From Acidobacteriota bacterium (GTDB taxonomy: Bacteria > Acidobacteriota > UBA4820 > DSQY01): a stretch of DNA of 11,197 nucleotides. Positions within the stretch are counted from its first letter, which is position 1, and each line of letters begins with the position of its first letter. Shown here in pieces: positions 2,081 through 10,756 of the stretch. The translations under genes were made by a program, and so were the position numbers. The notes beneath the pieces were generated by a model. It did not search any database. It worked only from the letters and a program-made list of their open reading frames with translations, and was not told the origin of the DNA. The stretch is from contig JBBIKI010000023.1 of assembly GCA_037445535.1 (NCBI GenBank), forward strand, positions 1 to 11,197. The letters are read 5' to 3'.

Positions 2081-2701
2081 TCACCCGCCCAGGAGGCCTC
2101 GGACGCCGAGCCAGAGCTCGTAGGCGCTGAAGCAGGCCAAGGCCACGGCGGACATGCCCAGCACCATCCTGCGCACCCTCTCCCCGATGCCGCCCAAGGC
2201 GCTTGCGGCCACGATGATGGCCACGGTGACGGCGATCATTGTGGTGTAGAAGCCGGCCAGCAACGCCAAGGCGCGGAGTCCCCCTTCGTGCCAGGCCTTC
2301 ACGGCGAGCGGCCCCATCACCAGGCTCCAGCCGATATACGGATTGGGATTGAGCAAGTTGACCAGGGTCGCCTTGAGGAGGCTCTGTGCTCCCGAACGCA
2401 GCTCCGGCTTCGTCTCTGCACTGAAACGGCGCCACGCGCCAAACGAACCGGCAGCGAGGAAGAGGAGGAAGACACCGCCGCCCAGTTGGAGCACCGAGAC
2501 AAGCACCTTCGGAACCTGGACCAGGATCACGAGGACGAGAGCGGCGACGGGGCCGTCGCTCAGGAGCGGGGCGAAGGCCGCGGGCCACGTGCGCCGCCAA
2601 CCGGCCGTCACGGATTGCGACACGATGTACGTCTGGTAGGGCCCGGGCTGGGCCGCGGCCGTAAAGGCGTAGACCACCCCGATCATGAGGAAGCCCAGCA
2701 T
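2081..2701 (-). CDS. LysE/RhtB-family amino-acid (homoserine/threonine-type) exporter, 206 aa
   Basis: ATG at 2701 (plus strand shows cat 2699-2701). The N-terminus MLGFLMIGVVYAFTAAAQPGPYQTYIVSQS and the internal LVNLLNPNPYIGWSLVMGPL match the LysE/RhtB signature (compare the RhtB segment FVNLTNPKSIVF). Six TM segments. The start lies 1 nt after the TAG stop (2703-2705) of the upstream small ORF, so the two are tightly coupled. Confidence 0.8.
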   Translation of the reverse strand: MLGFLMIGVVYAFTAAAQPGPYQTYIVSQSVTAGWRRTWPAAFAPLLSDGPVAALVLVILVQVPKVLVSVLQLGGGVFLLFLAAGSFGAWRRFSAETKPELRSGAQSLLKATLVNLLNPNPYIGWSLVMGPLAVKAWHEGGLRALALLAGFYTTMIAVTVAIIVAASALGGIGERVRRMVLGMSAVALACFSAYELWLGVRGLLGG

Positions 2702-2702
2702 G

Positions 2703-2900
2703 CTAAGAGTCCTGAAGGCCTCGGGACTGGGCGAGGGTCAGGGAAGAGGCTTGGAACCATTCCTTGGCGCTCTCCTTGGAGAGCACGATGACCGTGCAAA
2801 CCCCGAGAACCGTCCCGAAGGGCATGAACATGCAGGCCATGCCAGCCACGGTGTAATGGAAGATGGACACAAGCCGAAGATGTTCATCATCCTGAGTCAT
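2703..2900 (-). CDS. Small (65 aa) hypothetical membrane protein with one or two TM helices, co-transcribed with the LysE-family gene
   Basis: Internal ATG at 2900 (Met16 of track ORF 2703..2945; the track M at 2945 is not an ATG with an RBS). A strong SD GGGGGAG sits 7 nt upstream on the - strand. Product MTQDDEHLRLVSIFHYTVAGMACMFMPFGTVLGVCTVIVLSKESAKEWFQ... has a hydrophobic core. It lies in the lower-GC island together with the DUF1003 gene. No family recognised. Confidence 0.45.
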   Translation of the reverse strand: MTQDDEHLRLVSIFHYTVAGMACMFMPFGTVLGVCTVIVLSKESAKEWFQASSLTLAQSRGLQDS

Positions 2901-2971
2901 GGGTTCTCTCCCCCTTTGAGATCCGCCTCTTGCCGCTCCCGTCATGCCCGACGGGCGCTCAAAACCATCGC

Positions 2972-3532
2972 TTATGGATTCTTCTTGAAGTCTTCCGCGA
3001 GCTGGCTCAGAAGCGAAAGCTGGTCCTGCTGCATGGCGATGAGTTCACGCCATTGTTTCTCCCTGAGGGAGTCAAGTTTCTCGTGGAGCGTCATGATCTC
3101 GAGCTCCGACTTCAGGTTGACTTCGTAGTCGTGCTCCGCGCTCAGCCGATCCTTAGCGGCTTGCCGGTTCTGAGACATCAAGATGATCGGGGCCTGAATG
3201 GCGGCGAGCATAGACAACACGAGATTCAGCAGAATGTAAGGGTAAGGGTCAAATGCTTTTCGGAGTGTGACAAGAACGAACGAATTCAGGCCGACCCAGA
3301 CAACCATGACGGCCGCGAAGATCGAGATAAAGGTCCATGAGCCCCCGAAGCTCGCGACTCGATCCGCCATTCTCTGGCCGTACGTCATTTGCTCGGAATA
3401 GTCCTTGAGAACATTTCTTGAAATATGGGTTCGATTGGCGATGTGGTGAGCGACGTGCTTTTCTCGTTCGCTGAGCCGCTCATATGCCGTATGCAAATGC
3501 TTCTCGGATACTTGGTCCGCGTTCCCATTCAT
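2972..3532 (-). CDS. DUF1003-family integral membrane protein (about 186 aa from the ATG at 3532; the track ORF extends to a GTG at 3565)
   Basis: GSWTFISIFAAVMVVWVGLNSFVLVTLRKAFDPYPYILLNLVLSMLAAIQAPIILMSQNRQAAKDRLSAEHDYEVNLKSELEI is the characteristic DUF1003 (PF06210) core (FDPYPFILLNL..S..AA.QAP.I.MSQNRQ..DR...E.DY.VNLK.E). The ATG at 3532 has GGAGGA 8 nt upstream. The GTG at 3565 has no SD. GC content (~52%) is clearly below the window average. Confidence 0.8.
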   Translation of the reverse strand: MNGNADQVSEKHLHTAYERLSEREKHVAHHIANRTHISRNVLKDYSEQMTYGQRMADRVASFGGSWTFISIFAAVMVVWVGLNSFVLVTLRKAFDPYPYILLNLVLSMLAAIQAPIILMSQNRQAAKDRLSAEHDYEVNLKSELEIMTLHEKLDSLREKQWRELIAMQQDQLSLLSQLAEDFKKNP

Positions 3533-3803
3533 GGCGCAATCCTCCAGGTTTTCGTCCAAGTTCACTCCGCAGCCGCCGCCATGGCATCACGAAACAAGAT
3601 CCATGAACAGGGAAGGCGGCGAACATAAGGGGCAGGCGCCAAGTCTTCGGCCATGCGTCCTCGCCTCACGCCGATCGCCCCTCCTATTGCCGTTGGAGCC
3701 ACCTTGAGGTGGCGATGGAGCAGAAGGACAACCCATCGGTCTGAAGGAGCGCTCTCAAGGGCACGATCCCTTTCCGTGGGATGGGCCATTCGGGTGTGCG
3801 GGT

Positions 3804-4871
3804 TCATGGCTCCCACTGGAAACCGCACCGCAGGCAGCGGTGCCAAGTCCGGGCGCCCAGGAAACGCTTGAACAGCAGGCCGAGGGCGCTCTCACCCGCG
3901 AAGGGAGGCGGCTCGCAAGGTTCGGTCTCCGGGCTCCCGCACTGGGAGCAGTGTATCGCCGCGCCGGCCACGGCGTCGCCGTCCCGGACGACGGGCAAAT
4001 CGGGAAGGGGAGCGCCCGCCGGGAATGCCTGGTCCCACACCTCGCCGCACACGGTGCAGAGGAACCGCACCGGACCGCCCTTTGCAACCAGCACGTCGTT
4101 CATGCTCAGGTGACGGGACAAACATCTCGGGCACTGCGGGCCTGCCGTGTCGCCGTCGTCCTCCGGGGAGGCCTCCGCGGGCGCCTCGGGAGGCGCTTCC
4201 ACGATCTCCTGCGGCACCGCCTCCAGCTCATGGCGCCGCGAGGGTTCCGCGCTCCCCCCGGCGGCGGCCGTTCCCGGTCCCTTGGCTTCCAGGGGCGATG
4301 GCCATCGGTGCTCGCAATTCTCGCACGCGCACCACGGGCCGTCCTCCGCCTGCTGCATGTCAAAGGCGTCCCGCGGCGGCGGATCCGCCGCCGTCACTCG
4401 GAACGATCCGCACGCCGGACAGGCCGCGGGAAGGATGGGGAAGGTGTCGCTCAGATAGACGGCCTCGGCCACGGGGGTCCGGCGACCGCAGTTCTGGCAA
4501 CGCAGCCACCAGCTTCCCAAAGGCGACTCGCTGGGCGTCACGGCGCAGAATTCCGTAGAATCGCACGATGTGCAGCGGACGTCCCCTCCGGCGTCCCCGC
4601 CGCTTTCCTCGTCCCGCCGGGCCAGCCTCGCCTCCGCCTCCGCGCGCCGTTCGCGGGGAACCTGGAGCCACACTCCCGCCGCCGCCTCGCCCAGAACCTC
4701 CGGAGGCGCCACGCGCCGGTCCAGGAGGGCGCAGGGCAGAGGAACGGCGTGCAAGAGAGCTTGGGTGTCCTCAGCCGGTTCCATTGATTCGAAGATTCTC
4801 AGCAGCTCCCACTGCTCCGGATCGTTCCCCGGAGCGGGCGATGCGGCCTTTTCTCCAACCACCGGCGCCAA
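3804..4871 (-). CDS. Multi-zinc-ribbon protein: four tandem MJ0042-like CxxC...CxxCG zinc-ribbon modules separated by acidic, Pro/Ala-rich linkers; ~355 aa; start uncertain (TTG 4871 vs ATG 4784)
   Basis: Four modules: (1) RCTSCDSTEF..x19..WWLRCQNCGRR; (2) CPACGSFRV..x22..WCACENCEHRW; (3) CPRCLSRHL..x19..FLCTVCGEVW; (4) HCSQCGSPE..x30..WHRCLRCGFQWEP*. Each has the aromatic residue before the second Cys pair and a Gly after it, as in MJ0042-type zinc fingers. The TTG at 4871 lies 4 nt after the TAG stop (4876-4878) of the flotillin gene, with GGAAAGG upstream, which fits translational coupling. The alternative ATG at 4784 has no clear SD. Confidence 0.6.
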   Translation of the reverse strand: MAPVVGEKAASPAPGNDPEQWELLRIFESMEPAEDTQALLHAVPLPCALLDRRVAPPEVLGEAAAGVWLQVPRERRAEAEARLARRDEESGGDAGGDVRCTSCDSTEFCAVTPSESPLGSWWLRCQNCGRRTPVAEAVYLSDTFPILPAACPACGSFRVTAADPPPRDAFDMQQAEDGPWCACENCEHRWPSPLEAKGPGTAAAGGSAEPSRRHELEAVPQEIVEAPPEAPAEASPEDDGDTAGPQCPRCLSRHLSMNDVLVAKGGPVRFLCTVCGEVWDQAFPAGAPLPDLPVVRDGDAVAGAAIHCSQCGSPETEPCEPPPFAGESALGLLFKRFLGARTWHRCLRCGFQWEP

Positions 4872-4875
4872 CCCG

Positions 4876-6960
4876 CTACACCTTTCCCGCCTGCTTGGGA
4901 GGTTCGCTCGCGGCGGCCCCGGACTGTCCCTTGGCGGTGATGAGGTTGGTGAGGTAGGCCGAGAGGAGCCCGCCGAGGTGGTCGCCGCCCTGCACGAGCA
5001 GGTCCGGCGTCACCTTCACGTTGCCCGAGGAGATCTGCTTGGCGATCTCGATGGCCGTCACGCCCTGCTGGCCCACGGCCTTGTTCTGCAGCTCGTAGGC
5101 CTTGGCCGTGGCCTCGCCGATGGCCAGGATCTTGGCGCCCTCTGCCTCGCCCCTGGCCTTGATGCCCGAGGCCTCGCCCACGGCGCGCAGGCGGATGCTC
5201 TCCCCCTCGCCCTCGGCGAAACGGATGGCCTTCTCCTTGTTCTGCTCGGCGATTTTCACCCCGATCTCCGCCTCCACCAGGTTCTTCTGCTGGTCCGCCT
5301 CGGCCCGCGTCTTCTCCGTGGCGATTCGCGTCTGCTCGGCCTTCTGCTGGTCCTGGTACATCGCCTGCTGCTGCTGGGCGATGATCTTCTTGGTCTGCGT
5401 GTCCATGAGGTCCTGCGGGAGGTTGATCTGGCAGATGAGGACCGAGACGCACTCCACGTGGTACTTCTCCAGCTCGGCCTTGGCCCGTTCCTCCGCCTTG
5501 CGCTGCTCCTCCTGGCGGTCCTGCATGAAGTTCATGGCGGAGGTGGAGGAGGCCTGGTTGCGGAAGCTCGAATCGATCATGGGATGGATCACGTGGAGGA
5601 TGAGGTTCTCGATGGAGCCGATCTTCGCCACCATGTAGGGCGCCTGGTCCGGCCTAACGCGGATGACCACCTTGACGGAGACGCTGATTTGGAACCCGTC
5701 TCGGGAGATGACTTTCAGCGGGTCGAAGCGTGTCTCCTTGCTGTCGTCCCAGTCGATGGTGATGTTGGTCGTGTCCACGATGTAGGCCATGAACGCCCGC
5801 AGGTTCAGATAGTAGAAGCCGGGCCCCGCCACCTCCTGCTGGATGCCCCGGAAGCCCTTCGGCACGACGTACCGCTCGATGCCCAGGTCCAGCCGGCCCT
5901 CCAGGGCCTCCCGCGCGCCTTCGCCGCCCTCCGTGCCCTCCCGCTTGGCGGCCTCCTCGATGAGCTGGCGCACCTGGGCGGGCTCCTCGCCCACGTTGGA
6001 GACCACCACGGCCACCTGGCCGCGCTCCACCACCGCCACGTTGTCCAGCTCCACTTTGAAGGCGAGCGGGTTGATGTAGTAGGTTCCCGGCTTGAGCACG
6101 TCGAACTGCGGTCCCCGCTGGCCGCCCGCGTGGAGGAACTTGGAGGCGTCCTGGAAATCGCTGTGGCCCGTCACCGGCTTGGCCACGTACTCCTTGTCGG
6201 GGAGGGGTTCGCCGTCCACGGCCGTCACCAGGCCCACGCTCTTGGCGGGGATGACGGTGGCGTCCATGATCTCCACCTTGAAGAGCGCCATGTTGATGCG
6301 GTAAGTGCCGGGCAGCAGGATGTCGATCTGCGGCCCCTTCTGGCCCCCCAGGTTGAGGAAGGCCTGGCCGTCCTCGAAATTGGCGTGGCCCTCCACGTGC
6401 TGGGCCAAAAGCCGGCCCGGCGGTATGGAGTGGCCGTCCATGGCGGTCACGAGGCCGATGCGCCCCTTGTCTACCACGATCGCCTTGGCCCGCGTCACCT
6501 TGAAGAGGACGGGGTTGATGCGGTACGTGCCGGGCGGCAGGATCTGGATCTGCGGGCCCTTCTCGCCCCCGCTCTTGAGGAACTGCTCGCCCTCCTGGAA
6601 GCTGTTGTGCCCCGGCACCACCTTTGCGAAGATCTTCCCTGGTTCCACAGGGTCGCCGTCGATGGATTCCAGGATGCCCACCTCGTCCTGGGCGATGGTC
6701 GTAAAGGGAACCTTGCTCACACGGTAAAGGAAGGGGACGAGCATGTGGAGTCCCGGCCCAAGCGTCCGCGCCTGGATGCCCACCTCGCCCGAGAGGGCCA
6801 CCACCCGGCCCTGGGCCATGTCCTTTCCGAAATACTTGCGCTCGATGACCGCGATCTGCGTCCCGCCCACGATGACCACGGCCTTCATCAGGAGAAGAAT
6901 GGCGGCCACACCCAGGACATAGGGCCCGTACAGCAAGGAAAACCTTACGACCTCCGACAT
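4876..6960 (-). CDS. Flotillin-family (YqiK-like) SPFH/band-7 membrane protein, ~694 aa, with an N-terminal module repeated in tandem
   Basis: ATG at 6960 with GGGAGGA 5 nt upstream (the track start at 7002 is a GTG without an SD). It has an N-terminal TM segment (FSLLYGPYVLGVAAILLLMKAVVIVGG), an SPFH core (ITIDWDDSKETRFDPLKVISRDGFQISVSVKVVIRVRPD..., compare the YqiK segment LITKDRMRVDVVVAFFVRVKPS) and a flotillin-type Glu/Ala/Gln-rich coiled-coil tail (QQQQAMYQDQQKAEQTRIATEKTRAEADQQKNLVEAEIGVKIAEQNKEKAIRFAEGEGESIRLRAVGEASGIKARGEAEGAKILAIGEATAKAYELQNKAVG). Stop TAG is at 4876-4878. Confidence 0.85.
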   Translation of the reverse strand: MSEVVRFSLLYGPYVLGVAAILLLMKAVVIVGGTQIAVIERKYFGKDMAQGRVVALSGEVGIQARTLGPGLHMLVPFLYRVSKVPFTTIAQDEVGILESIDGDPVEPGKIFAKVVPGHNSFQEGEQFLKSGGEKGPQIQILPPGTYRINPVLFKVTRAKAIVVDKGRIGLVTAMDGHSIPPGRLLAQHVEGHANFEDGQAFLNLGGQKGPQIDILLPGTYRINMALFKVEIMDATVIPAKSVGLVTAVDGEPLPDKEYVAKPVTGHSDFQDASKFLHAGGQRGPQFDVLKPGTYYINPLAFKVELDNVAVVERGQVAVVVSNVGEEPAQVRQLIEEAAKREGTEGGEGAREALEGRLDLGIERYVVPKGFRGIQQEVAGPGFYYLNLRAFMAYIVDTTNITIDWDDSKETRFDPLKVISRDGFQISVSVKVVIRVRPDQAPYMVAKIGSIENLILHVIHPMIDSSFRNQASSTSAMNFMQDRQEEQRKAEERAKAELEKYHVECVSVLICQINLPQDLMDTQTKKIIAQQQQAMYQDQQKAEQTRIATEKTRAEADQQKNLVEAEIGVKIAEQNKEKAIRFAEGEGESIRLRAVGEASGIKARGEAEGAKILAIGEATAKAYELQNKAVGQQGVTAIEIAKQISSGNVKVTPDLLVQGGDHLGGLLSAYLTNLITAKGQSGAAASEPPKQAGKV
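5773..6621 (-). repeat. Intragenic tandem repeat: four copies (three full of ~73-75 aa, ~222 nt each, plus a fourth fused to the SPFH core) of the flotillin N-terminal module
   Basis: Protein repeats: GHNSFQEGEQFLKSGGEKGPQIQILPPGTYRINPVLFKV / GHANFEDGQAFLNLGGQKGPQIDILLPGTYRINMALFKV / GHSDFQDASKFLHAGGQRGPQFDVLKPGTYYINPLAFKV / PKGFRGIQQEVAGPGFYYLNLRAFMAY. Each resembles the single-copy N-terminal segment of E. coli YqiK (AFVRTGLGGQKVVMSGGAIVMPIFHEIIPINMNTLKLEV). The periodicity is also visible at DNA level, e.g. 6092-6180, 6305-6420 and 6527-6630 on the plus strand. Confidence 0.6.
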
Positions 6961-7127
6961 GCAATCCTCCCAATTAAAACTGCACTCCGGCAGCCCGGCC
7001 ACGGGTCCTTTGAACCGGCGACGGGTGCGGCCCCTCGCGCGAACCCGTCCCCTTCGCCGTTCGGCCCGGCCTGCCAGTCCCTGTCACCATCATCCCCACG
7101 CATAGAGGATACCACCGGCGGCGCCCT

Positions 7128-7190: not shown

Positions 7191-7376
7191 TTGACCTACA
7201 ATTTCGATCCCGGTCGCTGGTACGACAATCAGCGCGCGGCCCTTGAGGCACGGCTGGCGCGAGGCGAGCTGGGGCGGGATGCGTTCGAGGCGGCTCTAGA
7301 CGAATTGCAGCGGCGGCTGGAGGAGATGGAATCCCGGCTCGACGGCACCTTTCAGATTCCTCCGCCCAAGTCCTGA
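7191..7376 (+). CDS. Small (61 aa) hypothetical protein with a SHOCT-like motif; TTG start
   Basis: TTG at 7191 with GAGGA 4-8 nt upstream. Product MTYNFDPGRWYDNQRAALEARLARGELGRDAFEAALDELQRRLEEMESRLDGTFQIPPPKS. The segment LEARLARGELGRDAFEAALDEL resembles the SHOCT short C-terminal domain consensus (L.eL...G.it.eEFea.k..LL). It sits 70 nt upstream of, and on the same strand as, the HD-GYP gene. The overlapping antisense ORF 7090..7908 is judged spurious. Confidence 0.4.
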   Translation: MTYNFDPGRWYDNQRAALEARLARGELGRDAFEAALDELQRRLEEMESRLDGTFQIPPPKS

Positions 7377-7446: not shown

Positions 7447-8949
7447 ATGCCCGTTCAAGGCCAGAACGAGAGGCATCCCCGGGGGAAGCGCAAGGCGGGC
7501 GAGCTGGCGGCGCTTCGGGCGGTGGCCGCTGCCTGCGTGGAAGCGGCGGATGAACACGCCCTCATCGAGCGCGTCACGGACATCATCTGCGGGACCCTCT
7601 CCATCACCAATTTCGGCGTGATCCTCTACGATCTCAAGACCGGCCTTCTGCGGGACCACCCCTCCGCCCATCGCCGCAGGGGGAGCACGGCGCTGGAACT
7701 GGTCCTGGGCGAAGGCATCGTGGGAACCGTGGCCCTCTCGGGCCTTCCCAGGCGTGTCCCCGACGTCAGCCTCGATCCCATCTATCGCATGGGGGACCAG
7801 GATACGCGCTCGGAGCTGACGGTTCCCCTCAAGGTGGGCGATCAGATCATCGGCGTCATCAACAGTGAAAGCACGGAGCTGAACGCCTTCACGGAAGAGG
7901 ACGAACACCTGCTCATGGTCCTGGCCGGCCAGGTTGGGCCCACCATCGCGAGGCTCCGGACCATTCAGACCCTTCGGGACAGCGAGGAGAAGTATCGCGC
8001 CCTTTACGAAGACAACCCTTCCATGGTCCTCACGCTTGATGCCCGGGGGACCATCCTTTCGGTCAACCGGTTCGGCGCCCGGCAGCTCGGCTACTGCGCC
8101 GAGGAGTTGGTGGGGCGGTCACTCTTGAGCATCCTCCACCAGGAGGCCCGTGCGGACGCTCTTTCGCTGCTGGCCGGGCGGCTGGCCAAGCCCGGCGAGG
8201 TGGCCCAATGGGAGCGCCGCCACGTGCGGAGCGATGGAGGCGAGCTGATGCTCAAGGCCTCCGGCCGGGCCATCCGCGGAACGGACGGCGAGCCAGTGGT
8301 CCTGGTGGTCTGTGAGGACATCACGGAGCGGAAGCTGGCGGAGGAACGGTCCGAAGAGAGCCTCCGGCAGCTCGAGAAGCTCCTCGACGAAACCGTCCAG
8401 ACTCTGGCGGCGGTCGTGGAGGTGAAGGACCCTTACACGAGCGGCCACCAGCGGCGGGTCGTCCAGCTCGCCACGGCCATCGCCGGCCGGATGGATCTGC
8501 CTCCCTCACAGGTTCAGACGCTACGAGTGGCGGGCCTTCTTCACGACATCGGCAAGATCCAGGTCCCCTCCGACATCCTCTCCAAGCCGGGCAGCCTGAG
8601 CGATGCCGAGCGCACGATCATCCAGACCCACAGCGAAGTGGGTCACCGGCTTCTTCGGGGCATCTCCTTCGAGGGGCCCGCCGCGGAGATCGTCCTCCAG
8701 CACCACGAGCGCATGGATGGATCCGGCTATCCCAACCACCTCAAGGGGAGCGACATCTTGCTGGAGGCAAGAATCCTGGGCGTGGCGGACGTGGTGGAGG
8801 CCATCTCCAGCCACCGGCCCTACCGGCCCGCTCTCGGGATCGGGCATGCGCTGTCGGAGGTGTCCACCCTCTCGGGCGTCCTCTACGATCCGGCCGTGGT
8901 GGACGCGTGCCTCGGGGTCTTCGCAACAGGCGGTTTCGCGTTCGACTGA
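7447..8949 (+). CDS. GAF-PAS-HD-GYP protein (predicted c-di-GMP phosphodiesterase / signalling protein), 500 aa
   Basis: ATG at 7447 with GGGAGGA 8 nt upstream. It has an N-terminal GAF-like region (GEGIVGTVALSGLPRRVPDVSLDPIYRMGDQDTRSELTVPLKVGDQIIGVINSES), a PAS region (YRALYEDNPSMVLTLDARGTILSVNRFGARQLGYCAEELVGRSLLSI...VCEDITERKLAEE) and a C-terminal HD-GYP domain (HQRRVVQLATAIAG...LLHDIGKIQVPSDILSKPGSLSDAERTIIQTHSEVGHRLL...HHERMDGSGYPNHLKGSDI). Confidence 0.85.
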   Translation: MPVQGQNERHPRGKRKAGELAALRAVAAACVEAADEHALIERVTDIICGTLSITNFGVILYDLKTGLLRDHPSAHRRRGSTALELVLGEGIVGTVALSGLPRRVPDVSLDPIYRMGDQDTRSELTVPLKVGDQIIGVINSESTELNAFTEEDEHLLMVLAGQVGPTIARLRTIQTLRDSEEKYRALYEDNPSMVLTLDARGTILSVNRFGARQLGYCAEELVGRSLLSILHQEARADALSLLAGRLAKPGEVAQWERRHVRSDGGELMLKASGRAIRGTDGEPVVLVVCEDITERKLAEERSEESLRQLEKLLDETVQTLAAVVEVKDPYTSGHQRRVVQLATAIAGRMDLPPSQVQTLRVAGLLHDIGKIQVPSDILSKPGSLSDAERTIIQTHSEVGHRLLRGISFEGPAAEIVLQHHERMDGSGYPNHLKGSDILLEARILGVADVVEAISSHRPYRPALGIGHALSEVSTLSGVLYDPAVVDACLGVFATGGFAFD

Positions 8950-8954
8950 TACCG

Positions 8955-9428
8955 TCAGGCCGTCAAGCCAGCCGCGAGAAGGACCTGACGCAGCCCCACC
9001 CCATCCGCTTCGGTGAAGGCCGAGAGTGAGCGGCTGTCCAAATCCAGGACGCCCCAGCAAGAGCCGTCCGGTTCCAGACACGGGACGACCACCTCGGAAA
9101 GGTTGGCGGGGTCGCAGACGATGTGGTCCTCGCCCAGGGCGTGGACGTCCTCCACCACGCAAGGCGCCCGTTCGCGCCAAGCCTTGCCGCAGACGCCGTG
9201 GAGCCCGATGGGTGAGCACGCGGGCTTGGGGCGGCAGACGCGCAGGAGCAGAGCGTTGCCCGCCTCTGCGATCTCGTAGAAGCCGAGCCAGTCCACCCCT
9301 CGGCCTTGAAGATGGCGCCACAGAATGTCGGTGACGGCCTTCATTCGAGCCATGCGGTCCGCGCCGGGAGACATGTCCGTGCGGGCGGCGCCTTGGCAGG
9401 CGCCGTAGTCGCGGAAGGGCCTCGTCAT
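8955..9428 (-). CDS. msrC: Free methionine-(R)-sulfoxide reductase-type GAF-domain protein (fRMsr / YebR-MsrC family), 157 aa
   Basis: GLHGVCGKAWRERAPCVVEDVHALGEDHIVCDPANLSEVVVP matches the fRMsr signature (G.CG.A.......V.DVH...GHIACD..S.SEIV.P), including the three conserved Cys. The ATG at 9428 overlaps the upstream gene's TGA stop as ATGA (9425-9428). The stop at 8955-8957 is only 5 nt from the convergent HD-GYP stop. Confidence 0.75.
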   Translation of the reverse strand: MTRPFRDYGACQGAARTDMSPGADRMARMKAVTDILWRHLQGRGVDWLGFYEIAEAGNALLLRVCRPKPACSPIGLHGVCGKAWRERAPCVVEDVHALGEDHIVCDPANLSEVVVPCLEPDGSCWGVLDLDSRSLSAFTEADGVGLRQVLLAAGLTA

Positions 9429-10756
9429 GGTTCGTCAGCTCCCCCCAAGCCCTCCTCCGCCTCGGCGGCGGAGGAGCCCGAAAGGCCTCCCTCCTCGGCG
9501 GTCCAGGGAATCTCCGCGCCGATGGGGCAATAACGCTCGGGATACTCCGGGGCAATGAGGGGCGTGGCGCTGGTGCGGGCCAGGAAGCCCGCCAGGCGGC
9601 CCAGGAGGACGTAGAGGCCCGGCTGGACGTAGCGCGGCGGCCCTCCCTGAAGGGCCACGGGTTCGGGGCGAAGCATCTCCTGGACCAGGAAGCCACCGTG
9701 GCTCGCGCCCTCTCGGACGGCCTCCTTCCACGTGTCCAAGGGGACGAGTGAGCCCACCACCACGCCCCGGCCTTCGTACCCTCGTACGGGTTTGAGAACG
9801 AACTCGCCCGGGTTTGAGAGGAGGAGGTCCTCCATGTCCCGGGTCTTCCCATCGTGGTCCACGGGACCGGGACGAAGCAGGCGCGTCCACGGGATGCACG
9901 AGCCAAGCTCGGAGGCCAGGGGCGGCGGTAGGATGCGCGCGAAGGCCGGGTCCGAAAGGACCACGAAGAGGGCTTTGCTCCACGCCGGGTCGGTCCTGAA
10001 GCTCCCCGCGAAGCAAGCCGCTCCTTCAAGGTAGCTATCCAGGAAAGGGCGGATTTCGCCCGCGCGCCGGAAGGCCTCCTCGCTCACCACGCGCCGGTAG
10101 ACCAGGTTCACCTCCCCGGAAGGCCCCATGAGCGAGCCCTCCGTGAGGCGAAGAGCCCTGGGGTCCTCCACCGTGGCGGGGTAGCCCGAAGCCGTGAAGA
10201 AGGCGGCCAAGGCCTCCTGCTCGGACCGGGTTCCCACCTCCGCCCAATCCACGATGGCGATGCGCGGCCGCTCGGTGCCGCGCTTGTCCCACTGCCGGAA
10301 GCAGTGCAGGAGAGTGTCCAGAAGGCGGGCGGTAAGAGGGTAGTCTTCCTGCGGCATGCCGTGGCGCTCGCGCCACAGCTTCGTGAGAGCCGCCGAGTAA
10401 TGCCACCCCGCCGTGCCGTCCGTGTTGTACTCCATGAAGCGCGGGCCCCTCGGGAAGAGAAAGGAATCCCAGCGGCCCAGCGGGATGAGGGGACGGTAGC
10501 CCGGGTCCTTCAGGATGAAAGACTCCTGGAAGGCGCCGTAGCCAAAGAGGCGGCGAAGCGGCGGGTCCCTCGGAAAGGCCTCCACCACCACCTCGGCGGC
10601 GGCGCTCGCCGCCTCCACCGCGCGCCGGATGTTATCCACCTGGCCTTCCTCGGGGAGGAAGGGATGGTCCGAGACGGGCAGGGCGAAACCCCGAAACGAG
10701 ATGCCCCTCCCGATCAGCTCGTTGTCGGTCCAGGGGTGCGGCGGCGGCAGGCTCAT
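9425..10756 (-). CDS. Glutathionylspermidine-synthase-family (YgiC/YjfC-like) ATP-grasp amide ligase, 443 aa
   Basis: ATG at 10756. MEYNTDGTAGWHYSAAL resembles the E. coli YgiC segment LENNADTPTSLYEAA. FVLKPVRGYEGRGVVVG resembles YgiC YVVKPIFSREGANVSII (ATP-grasp KP..G.EG.G strand). The rest has similar spacing. It is coupled to the fRMsr-like gene by an ATGA overlap. The antisense/alternate-frame ORFs 8521..10029 and 9435..10016 are judged spurious. Confidence 0.6.
   Translation of the reverse strand: MSLPPPHPWTDNELIGRGISFRGFALPVSDHPFLPEEGQVDNIRRAVEAASAAAEVVVEAFPRDPPLRRLFGYGAFQESFILKDPGYRPLIPLGRWDSFLFPRGPRFMEYNTDGTAGWHYSAALTKLWRERHGMPQEDYPLTARLLDTLLHCFRQWDKRGTERPRIAIVDWAEVGTRSEQEALAAFFTASGYPATVEDPRALRLTEGSLMGPSGEVNLVYRRVVSEEAFRRAGEIRPFLDSYLEGAACFAGSFRTDPAWSKALFVVLSDPAFARILPPPLASELGSCIPWTRLLRPGPVDHDGKTRDMEDLLLSNPGEFVLKPVRGYEGRGVVVGSLVPLDTWKEAVREGASHGGFLVQEMLRPEPVALQGGPPRYVQPGLYVLLGRLAGFLARTSATPLIAPEYPERYCPIGAEIPWTAEEGGLSGSSAAEAEEGLGGADEP

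Follow-up and report, generated by a model that had tools for sequence, protein, structure and literature searches.

An SPFH-domain gene and a four-zinc-ribbon gene in tight tandem in a small acidobacterial lineage

The stretch of DNA analysed here (the window; 11,197 nucleotides (nt), contig JBBIKI010000023.1 of an Acidobacteriota bacterium, assembly GCA_037445535.1) carries two tightly spaced genes on its minus strand, to which all coordinates of the pair given below refer. The upstream gene (4876..6960) encodes a 694-amino-acid (aa) membrane protein with an SPFH domain, identified by Pfam Band_7, and the downstream gene (3804..4871) a soluble, acidic protein made up of a DUF2007-type domain and four zinc ribbons. 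An earlier note, made from the sequence alone, had described the pair as a repeat-expanded flotillin coupled to a zinc-ribbon protein instead of the usual NfeD partner. Its coordinates for both genes, as well as for the stop codon TAG 4876-4878 of the first, are correct as read in the sequence.

The SPFH gene lies within an enclosing open reading frame (ORF) of 4876-7002 and probably starts at ATG 6960, which is the most plausible start codon since a GGAGG ribosome-binding site (6966..6970) sits 5 nt upstream of it. By exact look-up, a protein identical to the 694-aa sequence is on record. The start codon of the zinc-ribbon gene, which ends with TGA at 3804-3806, is uncertain. From TTG 4869-4871, as first assumed, the protein has 355 aa and the spacer behind the SPFH stop codon is indeed 4 nt (4872..4875), whereas from the alternative GTG 4860-4862 it has 352 aa and follows after 13 nt (4863-4875). 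In a junction alignment, the ATG of the orthologue from a diverged lineage, Acidobacteria bacterium BP9.bin43 (loci L002 and L007, which are the same), aligns with this GTG, and the gene caller picked the same GTG start in a 91% identical zinc-ribbon protein (P0001). Furthermore, an exact-sequence look-up of the 355-aa form starting at TTG found no record, as would be expected if gene callers had chosen GTG. With 4-13 nt, the spacing is tight in both cases. The window is itself part of an acidobacterial metagenome-assembled genome; contigs of two such genomes of ‘Acidobacteria bacterium’, WY4.bin4 and BP8.bin17, match at 99-100%, and an Rfam scan of the window matched no RNA family.

The SPFH protein starts with a single N-terminal transmembrane helix (aa ~8-26; 6883..6939), recognised by hydropathy, as the highest 19-residue Kyte-Doolittle value is 2.49 at aa 15-33 and does not exceed 1.2 elsewhere. 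Across the family, Lys plus Arg number 0.15 ahead of the helix against 4.5 in the 25 residues that follow, so that by the positive-inside rule an N-out/C-in topology is predicted; most of the protein would then probably lie in the cytoplasm. The helix is followed by a first SPFH beta-hairpin unit (aa 35-92; 6685..6858) with the motif ‘GPGLHMLVPF’, which aligns with the start of the Erlin-2 SPFH domain and represents a weak partial repeat copy, matched by the hidden Markov model (HMM) of the repeat at aa 56-86 and by BLASTP of repeat 2 at aa 68-92 (E=0.017). Next come three tandem 74-aa repeats (aa 94-315; nt 6016-6681) with a mutual identity of 45-50% (BLASTP E ~1e-23), namely repeat 1 (aa 94-167; 6460..6681; 50% identical to repeat 2, E=3e-23), repeat 2 (aa 168-241; 6238..6459), and repeat 3 (aa 242-315; 6016..6237; 50% identical to repeat 2, E=2.5e-23). 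Each of them closes with a ‘PGTYRINP.LFKV’ motif echoing the SPFH hairpin, and the repeats look like expanded copies of the first beta-hairpin when their sequences are compared (‘GPGxHxxxPF’ vs ‘PGTYRINPxxF’). The core SPFH/Band_7 domain (aa 372-542; 5335..5847; PF01145) opens with another weak repeat copy, formed by its first strands at aa 368-400 (repeat match E=2e-4). The long, Glu/Ala-rich C-terminal region (aa ~521-644; 5029..5400) is helical in a low-confidence AlphaFold2 model, which predicts helices at 521-584, 588-597, and 605-629, and gives weak coiled-coil-type matches to Erlin-2 and YqiK.

Although the upstream gene had been called a flotillin, its product is an SPFH protein with Band_7 as its sole Pfam match (PF01145; 79.2 bits against a cut-off of 23.6). 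Whereas a Band_7/Flot match had been expected, the Flot domain (PF15975) gave no match even at E<=1, with Escherichia coli YqiK scoring 139.8 bits as a control. Likewise, BLASTP against E. coli YqiK revealed no significant similarity, the best one-to-one alignment (E=0.039) being confined to the coiled-coil region. A search of the PDB with the single SPFH sequence found nothing, and one with the family profile found only Erlin-2 (E=0.04) and no flotillin. No NCBIfam model matches the protein, PHROGs assigns it only to a generic SPFH ‘lipoprotein’ family, and PADLOC returned no defence-system match for either protein of the pair. The flotillin-like traits that are present comprise the N-terminal membrane anchor and the long C-terminal helical region, the latter taken from a low-confidence model. 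The assignment as a flotillin sensu stricto (SPFH2, which includes YqiK and FloT) was therefore rejected, because the Flot domain, YqiK similarity, and an NfeD2/YqiJ-type operon gene are all lacking.

Instead, full-length similarity of at least 60% and the possession of 3-5 repeats place the protein in an unnamed subfamily of ~690-aa SPFH proteins, whose database names are ‘SPFH domain-containing protein’ or ‘YqiK’. This subfamily comprises more than 3,644 proteins at E<=1e-10 in a word-indexed search; the best 120 matches are 71-100% identical, nearly all of them 75-83%, over near full length. In a survey of contigs from one genome per species, 173 loci were confirmed, the best 80 of which encode proteins 61-99% identical to that of the window and belong to Acidobacteriota, Ignavibacteriota, Bacteroidota, Nitrospirota, Desulfobacterota, Spirochaetota, and Negativicutes, with Solidesulfovibrio aerotolerans, Lucifera butyrica, and Oryzomonas japonica among the cultured hosts. 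Identity is thus maintained at 61-83% over at least 89% of the length between proteins from at least seven phyla. According to the repeat HMM, 166 proteins have three copies of the 74-aa repeat, 22 have four, and six have five. The protein is indeed repeat-expanded, as the earlier note had it, but this is not special to the locus: the three-repeat form is the common one of a very large family. Variants in repeat number include P0007, P0008, and L083-L085. Next to the five-repeat SPFH gene of O. japonica Red96 (L085), and 57 nt behind it, lies a gene (8577-9317 (+)) for a 246-aa protein unrelated to the window's zinc-ribbon protein, in which a zinc ribbon (MICPKCTHEQPDGSDHCLRCG) comes first and is followed by hydrophobic segments that, judged by eye, may be membrane-spanning; L084, the closest SPFH relative of L085, lacks this gene.

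All-against-all clustering of 1,624 flanking ORFs, together with a Pfam scan of 137 adjacent ORFs, turned up no gene that regularly accompanies the SPFH gene; even the Pfam family met most often occurs in just 5 of the 137. Neither NfeD nor YqiJ_OB ranked among the 25 commonest families in these ORFs, which adjoin SPFH genes of ~75 other species. Neighbours that do recur reflect clade-specific synteny, such as DUF6159 in Ignavibacteria or a C39-like peptidase and an ornithine cyclodeaminase in some Bacteroidales, and the genes downstream of family members are convergent as often as co-directional (34 vs 34). In the window, none of the 10 main ORFs has a Pfam match to the NfeD, YqiJ_N, YqiJ_OB, or PspA families, which confirms the earlier observation that neither an NfeD-like protein nor a pspA homologue is present. 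However, the ‘missing NfeD’ is the normal state of this SPFH subfamily. According to Hinderhofer et al. (2009, PMC2636767), NfeD pairs only with SPFH1, 2, and 5, and SPFH3, 4, and 6-12 are without it. Since the subfamily has no recurrent NfeD neighbour, and SPFH subfamilies without NfeD are already documented, there is no NfeD which the zinc-ribbon protein could ‘replace’.

The zinc-ribbon protein starts with a DUF2007-type domain (aa ~13-92; 4596..4835) that had been overlooked. It is too diverged for direct Pfam detection (no match of the N-terminal 96 aa at E<=5) and was recognised from its beta-alpha-beta-beta-alpha fold in AlphaFold2, with a predicted local distance difference test score (pLDDT) of 75-82, and by hhalign, in which aa 13-92 of the window family (A1) match the DUF2007-positive relatives (A6) with 99.1% probability (E=1.1e-18). 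The relatives P0132, P0137, P0141, and P0143 pass the Pfam DUF2007 model (PF09413) with 28.5-40.4 bits against a cut-off of 25.7. Behind this domain follow four CxxC...CxxC units: ribbon 1 (C100, C103...C125, C128; 4488..4574), ribbon 2 (C151, C154...C183, C186, W190; 4314..4421), ribbon 3 (C247, C250...C272, C275, W279; 4047..4133), and ribbon 4 (C308, C311...C346, C349, W353; 3825..3950). Ribbons 2 and 3 are joined by the acidic linker reported earlier, a long Pro/Ala/Glu-rich stretch (aa 194-241; 4149..4292) which is predicted to be disordered (pLDDT <50), is poorly conserved, and varies in length. Among 10 four-ribbon homologues, the most distant 28% identical, none of the 16 ribbon cysteines varies, nor does the Trp that follows the second knuckle in ribbons 2, 3, and 4; the Cys pattern, whose loss would have spoken against a ribbon protein, is therefore kept. 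In the AlphaFold2 model, short strands flank each CxxC knuckle. Ribbon 4 contains a conserved inserted helix (‘ESALGLLFKRFLG’) and is the most widely kept module of the family, being the part matched in short relatives of 157-219 aa. While the four ribbon units themselves stand, their designation as MJ0042-like falls short of the curated threshold (TIGR02098; 18.7 bits, cut-off 20.9), and the Pfam zinc-ribbon hits that had been expected all lie under cut-off.

With 54 Asp plus Glu against 30 Lys plus Arg, the protein is acidic; it contains 20 Cys and no transmembrane segment by hydropathy. Pfam found neither NfeD (PF01957) nor YqiJ_OB in it, and there is no signal of an OB (oligonucleotide/oligosaccharide-binding) fold and no membrane anchor. 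Foldseek of the model against the PDB gave nothing at E<=0.001, its weak look-alikes being Rpb9/TFIIS-type ribbons, a PrgK ring motif, and the DUF2007 structure 2hfv. From the invariant cysteines, zinc binding is predicted as very probable. Purifying selection on the gene is shown, at the level of codon substitutions, by a ratio of nonsynonymous to synonymous rates (dN/dS) of 0.26-0.39.

In comparison to its SPFH neighbour, the zinc-ribbon protein belongs to a small family, with only four close homologues among 5.8 billion clusters, and with 7 matches below 1e-30 and 23 below 1e-3 in a HMMER profile search of 1.84 billion representatives; in a plasmid collection no relative was found. For six of the relatives (P0126, P0127, P0128, P0129, P0130, and P0131), each gene has a different, unrelated context, and an SPFH gene is missing from all six contigs. 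Contexts of the relatives include aldehyde dehydrogenase/GH57, PAS-GGDEF-EAL/ECF sigma factor, signal peptidase S26, DUF937/dodecin, and ADH/DcuC. An SPFH fusion (‘Rosetta stone’) was also considered and rejected, as the weak hits P0139, P0140, P0142, and P0145-P0147 are unrelated proteins, none of them with an SPFH domain. Among its relatives are DUF2007 proteins (PF09413, ‘putative prokaryotic signal transducing protein’) with one or two C-terminal ribbons, whose N-terminal domain is homologous to that of the window protein; those of 157-219 aa share with it a C-terminal ribbon of the form ‘ES.L...FKR..G.GW.RC..CGH.W’, but the window protein has four ribbons instead of one or two. Such a protein is also encoded in the BP9.bin43 lineage 3.3 kb downstream of the pair, by a paralogous 170-aa gene with a DUF2007 domain and a single ribbon (L002 13315-13827 (-), the same as L007 ~12403-12549), which shares 50% identity with ribbon 4 of the window protein.

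Besides the clade to which the window belongs (L001, L004, L005, and L006), the diverged BP9.bin43 lineage has the pair as well, there with a spacer of 9 nt (L002). Between these two lineages the SPFH proteins are 83% and the zinc-ribbon proteins 63% identical, with a dN of 0.12 and 0.28, respectively, and a synonymous distance (dS) of ~1.1 for the zinc-ribbon gene. When window 3804-6960 was compared with L002 6919-10064, the dS of the SPFH gene was 0.52, about half of the 1.1 of the zinc-ribbon gene; codon-usage constraint, a later exchange of the SPFH gene, or imprecision of the method near saturation are possible reasons. Within 6-10 kb on each side, the pair comprises the sole genes shared by the window and L002/L007, the flanks being entirely different; thus, the unit outlived the rearrangement of both flanks. 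In contrast, tblastn found the zinc-ribbon protein encoded at none of the SPFH loci of ~75 other species. In a neighbour-joining tree of SPFH proteins the two pair-bearing lineages are sisters, and the next acidobacterial clade (Aminicenantes, QNF bin_258, and WY3.bin21; 81-83% identity) has other downstream genes and no zinc-ribbon gene. From this tree and the gene contents, the pattern is consistent with a single acquisition. The pair is therefore co-localised in a second lineage, so that the refuting case named in the earlier note, a pair never found together elsewhere, does not apply, but it does not extend to the ~75 other species, and as the six other zinc-ribbon lineages likewise have no SPFH neighbour, the idea of a general module finds no support in its distribution.

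Within the window's clade, L006 (6097-6559; JAKAKG010000063.1) encodes a 99% identical SPFH protein followed by a zinc-ribbon gene with an in-frame deletion of 165 codons (codons 8-172; junction ...VVGE|QAEDGPWW...), which removes the DUF2007 domain, ribbon 1, and half of ribbon 2.

How does this pair compare with known SPFH systems? The flotillin-NfeD operons (E. coli yqiJ-yqiK, Bacillus subtilis yuaF-floT, and the SPFH2/NfeD2 units of PMC2636767) are tight two-gene units as well, in which the SPFH protein is anchored in the membrane, ends in a long helical region rich in Glu and Ala, and is accompanied by a second, smaller protein. However, the window's SPFH protein has no Flot domain (for which YqiK scores 139.8 bits) and no significant YqiK similarity, three 74-aa repeats precede its SPFH core, and its partner gene lies downstream rather than upstream, encodes a soluble protein with DUF2007 domain and ribbons instead of a membrane anchor and OB fold, and is not conserved across the SPFH family. 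A second candidate, invoked as a precedent by the earlier note, is the pspA-ydjGHI (samGHI) operon of B. subtilis, in which an SPFH protein is linked to CxxC/zinc-finger components and not to NfeD, as here. This SPFH protein was proposed to regulate partner proteins at the membrane (PMC8581546; bioRxiv 10.64898/2026.02.06.704340); named SamI/YdjI, it also carries a zinc-finger motif (bioRxiv 10.64898/2026.02.06.704340), and a ydjG cloning primer encodes MIISYKCPNC (PMC8581546). SamI is soluble and recruited by the membrane proteins SamG and SamH, YdjG and YdjH being membrane-integral (PMC8581546; bioRxiv 10.64898/2026.02.06.704340). In the window the arrangement is reversed: it is the SPFH protein that carries a transmembrane helix, while its zinc-ribbon neighbour is soluble. 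With no PspA_IM30 match in the 10 window ORFs, and no transmembrane segment in the zinc-ribbon protein, the likeness consists in the CxxC/SPFH linkage alone; the precedent holds as to this linkage, but the analogy is loose.

Further parallels are found among the NfeD-less subfamilies SPFH3, 4, and 6-12 (PMC2636767), which have an N-terminal transmembrane helix, no NfeD neighbour, and, like the window subfamily, a patchy distribution across phyla combined with very high conservation within the subfamily. More remote homologues, 29-34% identical along most of the length, are 680-690-aa proteins from Ralstonia and Rhizobium plasmids (WP_012435685.1 and WP_012555099.1), found with E=2e-89 (tblastn, Ralstonia) and E=8e-66 (BLASTP, Rhizobium). 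In Pfam, Band_7 is the sole match of each, and their genes stand alone, without a zinc-ribbon neighbour. PGAP names one of them ‘flotillin family protein’, the database names being ‘SPFH domain-containing’ or ‘flotillin family’. The Rhizobium protein, the only one that was aligned, has the repeat-bearing layout with the same motif, and ~2 repeats were counted by eye in the pairwise alignment.

The genes around the pair give the following picture. About 240 nt downstream of the zinc-ribbon gene lie three tightly packed genes on the same strand (2081-3565 (-)), namely a DUF1003 gene (2972-3565 (-)), an 80-aa ORF (2703-2945 (-)), and a LysE-type exporter gene (2081-2701 (-)); this trio is not conserved beside the pair in L002. 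Divergent from the SPFH gene is a 61-aa ORF (7191-7376 (+)), for which L001 has a gene call and L054 and L006 show 87-91% conservation, with no family match above cut-off. It is followed by a GAF-PAS-HD-GYP gene (7447-8949 (+)). Convergent with the latter, the region 8955-10756 (-) looks like a separate two-gene unit, in which a 443-aa ORF without Pfam, NCBIfam, or PADLOC match overlaps by 4 nt the gene of a 157-aa protein with a below-threshold GAF match.

Taken together, we favour, at a probability of roughly 60%, the reading that the pair is a two-gene transcription unit of one small acidobacterial lineage, in which the ribbon protein serves the SPFH protein as no more than an accessory limited to this lineage, neither obligatory nor a substitute for NfeD. 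The zinc-ribbon gene would have been placed behind the SPFH gene once, in the common ancestor of the window clade and the BP9.bin43 lineage, and the pair would then have been retained and co-expressed at a distance of 4-13 nt. Co-transcription is likely. With its layout of N-terminal transmembrane helix, first hairpin, 3-5 putatively hairpin-derived 74-aa repeats, core, and helical tail, the SPFH protein would, by analogy, most likely form a membrane-anchored oligomeric scaffold or cage. The cysteine-rich zinc-ribbon protein would have to be cytoplasmic too, on the same side as the predicted body of the SPFH protein, and its architecture, with five small modules (the DUF2007-type domain and four ribbons) on flexible acidic linkers, agrees better with a multivalent protein-protein adaptor than with an enzyme, and binding of nucleic acids is less likely. 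Nevertheless, a physical interaction or a lineage-specific accessory role is possible but rather doubtful when taken as a claim of its own, and an obligatory or NfeD-like role is very improbable. Several points weigh against our reading. The pair traces to one evolutionary event, so that its ‘conservation’ is a single observation, and the L006 deletion, which could be real or an artefact or collapse of metagenome assembly, argues against an obligatory partnership. Furthermore, a scan for promoters and terminators on either side of the pair found nothing above shuffled expectation, which leaves the operon boundaries undefined, and the AlphaFold2 models are poor: that of the SPFH protein with 40 homologues (pLDDT 49) is unusable, and that of the whole zinc-ribbon protein, with four small ribbon modules besides the N-terminal domain and the disordered linker, reaches pLDDT 60.

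The main rival is that the zinc-ribbon gene merely hitch-hikes on the SPFH transcript and has an unrelated function, for instance as a cytoplasmic regulatory or zinc/redox adaptor like the DUF2007 relatives. The occurrence of the ribbon relatives in unrelated contexts, the 170-aa DUF2007-ribbon paralogue of L002, which has no SPFH link, the L006 deletion variant, and the much faster evolution of the zinc-ribbon protein (63% vs 83% identity; dN 0.28 vs 0.12) all speak for it, but the pair survived the rearrangement of both flanks over a dS of ~1, a spacing of 4-13 nt is typical of coupled genes, and both products are predicted on the cytoplasmic side; we regard this explanation as a serious possibility, though short of even odds. 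Conversely, the zinc-ribbon protein may be a genuine cytoplasmic client or regulator of the SPFH cage, docking via its ribbons or the ribbon-4 helix, which we consider unlikely. Still less probable is the proposal of the earlier note, in which the four-ribbon protein acts as a dedicated flotillin partner in the place of NfeD, forming an undescribed membrane-microdomain or envelope-stress module. Tight spacing, conserved cysteines, maintenance of the pair in two diverged lineages with different flanks, and the loose B. subtilis precedent are what it can draw upon. It is already weakened by the distribution data, with a zinc-ribbon gene at 0 of ~75 other SPFH loci and an SPFH neighbour in 0 of six other zinc-ribbon lineages, and it is further contradicted by the L006 variant, by an SPFH protein that fails the flotillin tests, by a ribbon protein lacking a membrane anchor as well as any signal of NfeD or an OB fold, and by the absence of a recurrent NfeD neighbour from the subfamily as sampled, a state already documented for other SPFH subfamilies (PMC2636767). 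Finally, long spurious ORFs abound in the region of the pair (62-72% GC), where the antisense strand has, for example, an ORF of 874 aa spanning the SPFH gene and one of 315 aa opposite the zinc-ribbon gene, and the 355-aa ORF might itself have arisen by chance in such DNA. The existence of homologues as distant as 28% identity in which 16 cysteines are invariant, an N-terminal domain folding with moderate confidence (pLDDT 75-82), and its profile match to DUF2007 proteins (E=1e-18) contradict this explanation, whose probability is practically nil; it is excluded because of the conservation pattern and a dN/dS as low as 0.26.

Thus read, the zinc-ribbon neighbour is the peculiarity of one lineage, and the pair a lineage-restricted variant of an SPFH gene plus accessory gene. 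More notable is the uncharacterised ~690-aa SPFH subfamily itself, with its strong conservation across phyla and 3-5 repeats inserted at the start of the SPFH domain: the identity maintained over at least seven phyla is unusually strong for an uncharacterised membrane protein without conserved neighbour or close relative in the PDB. In addition, the invariant cysteines mark out the DUF2007-plus-zinc-ribbon proteins as a family of their own, small and uncharacterised. Should the products of the pair interact in this lineage, they would open an experimental way into what the SPFH subfamily does; should the zinc-ribbon protein turn out to be a client of the SPFH cage or to regulate it, it would represent a new, soluble type of SPFH partner other than NfeD and the first functional handle on the subfamily.

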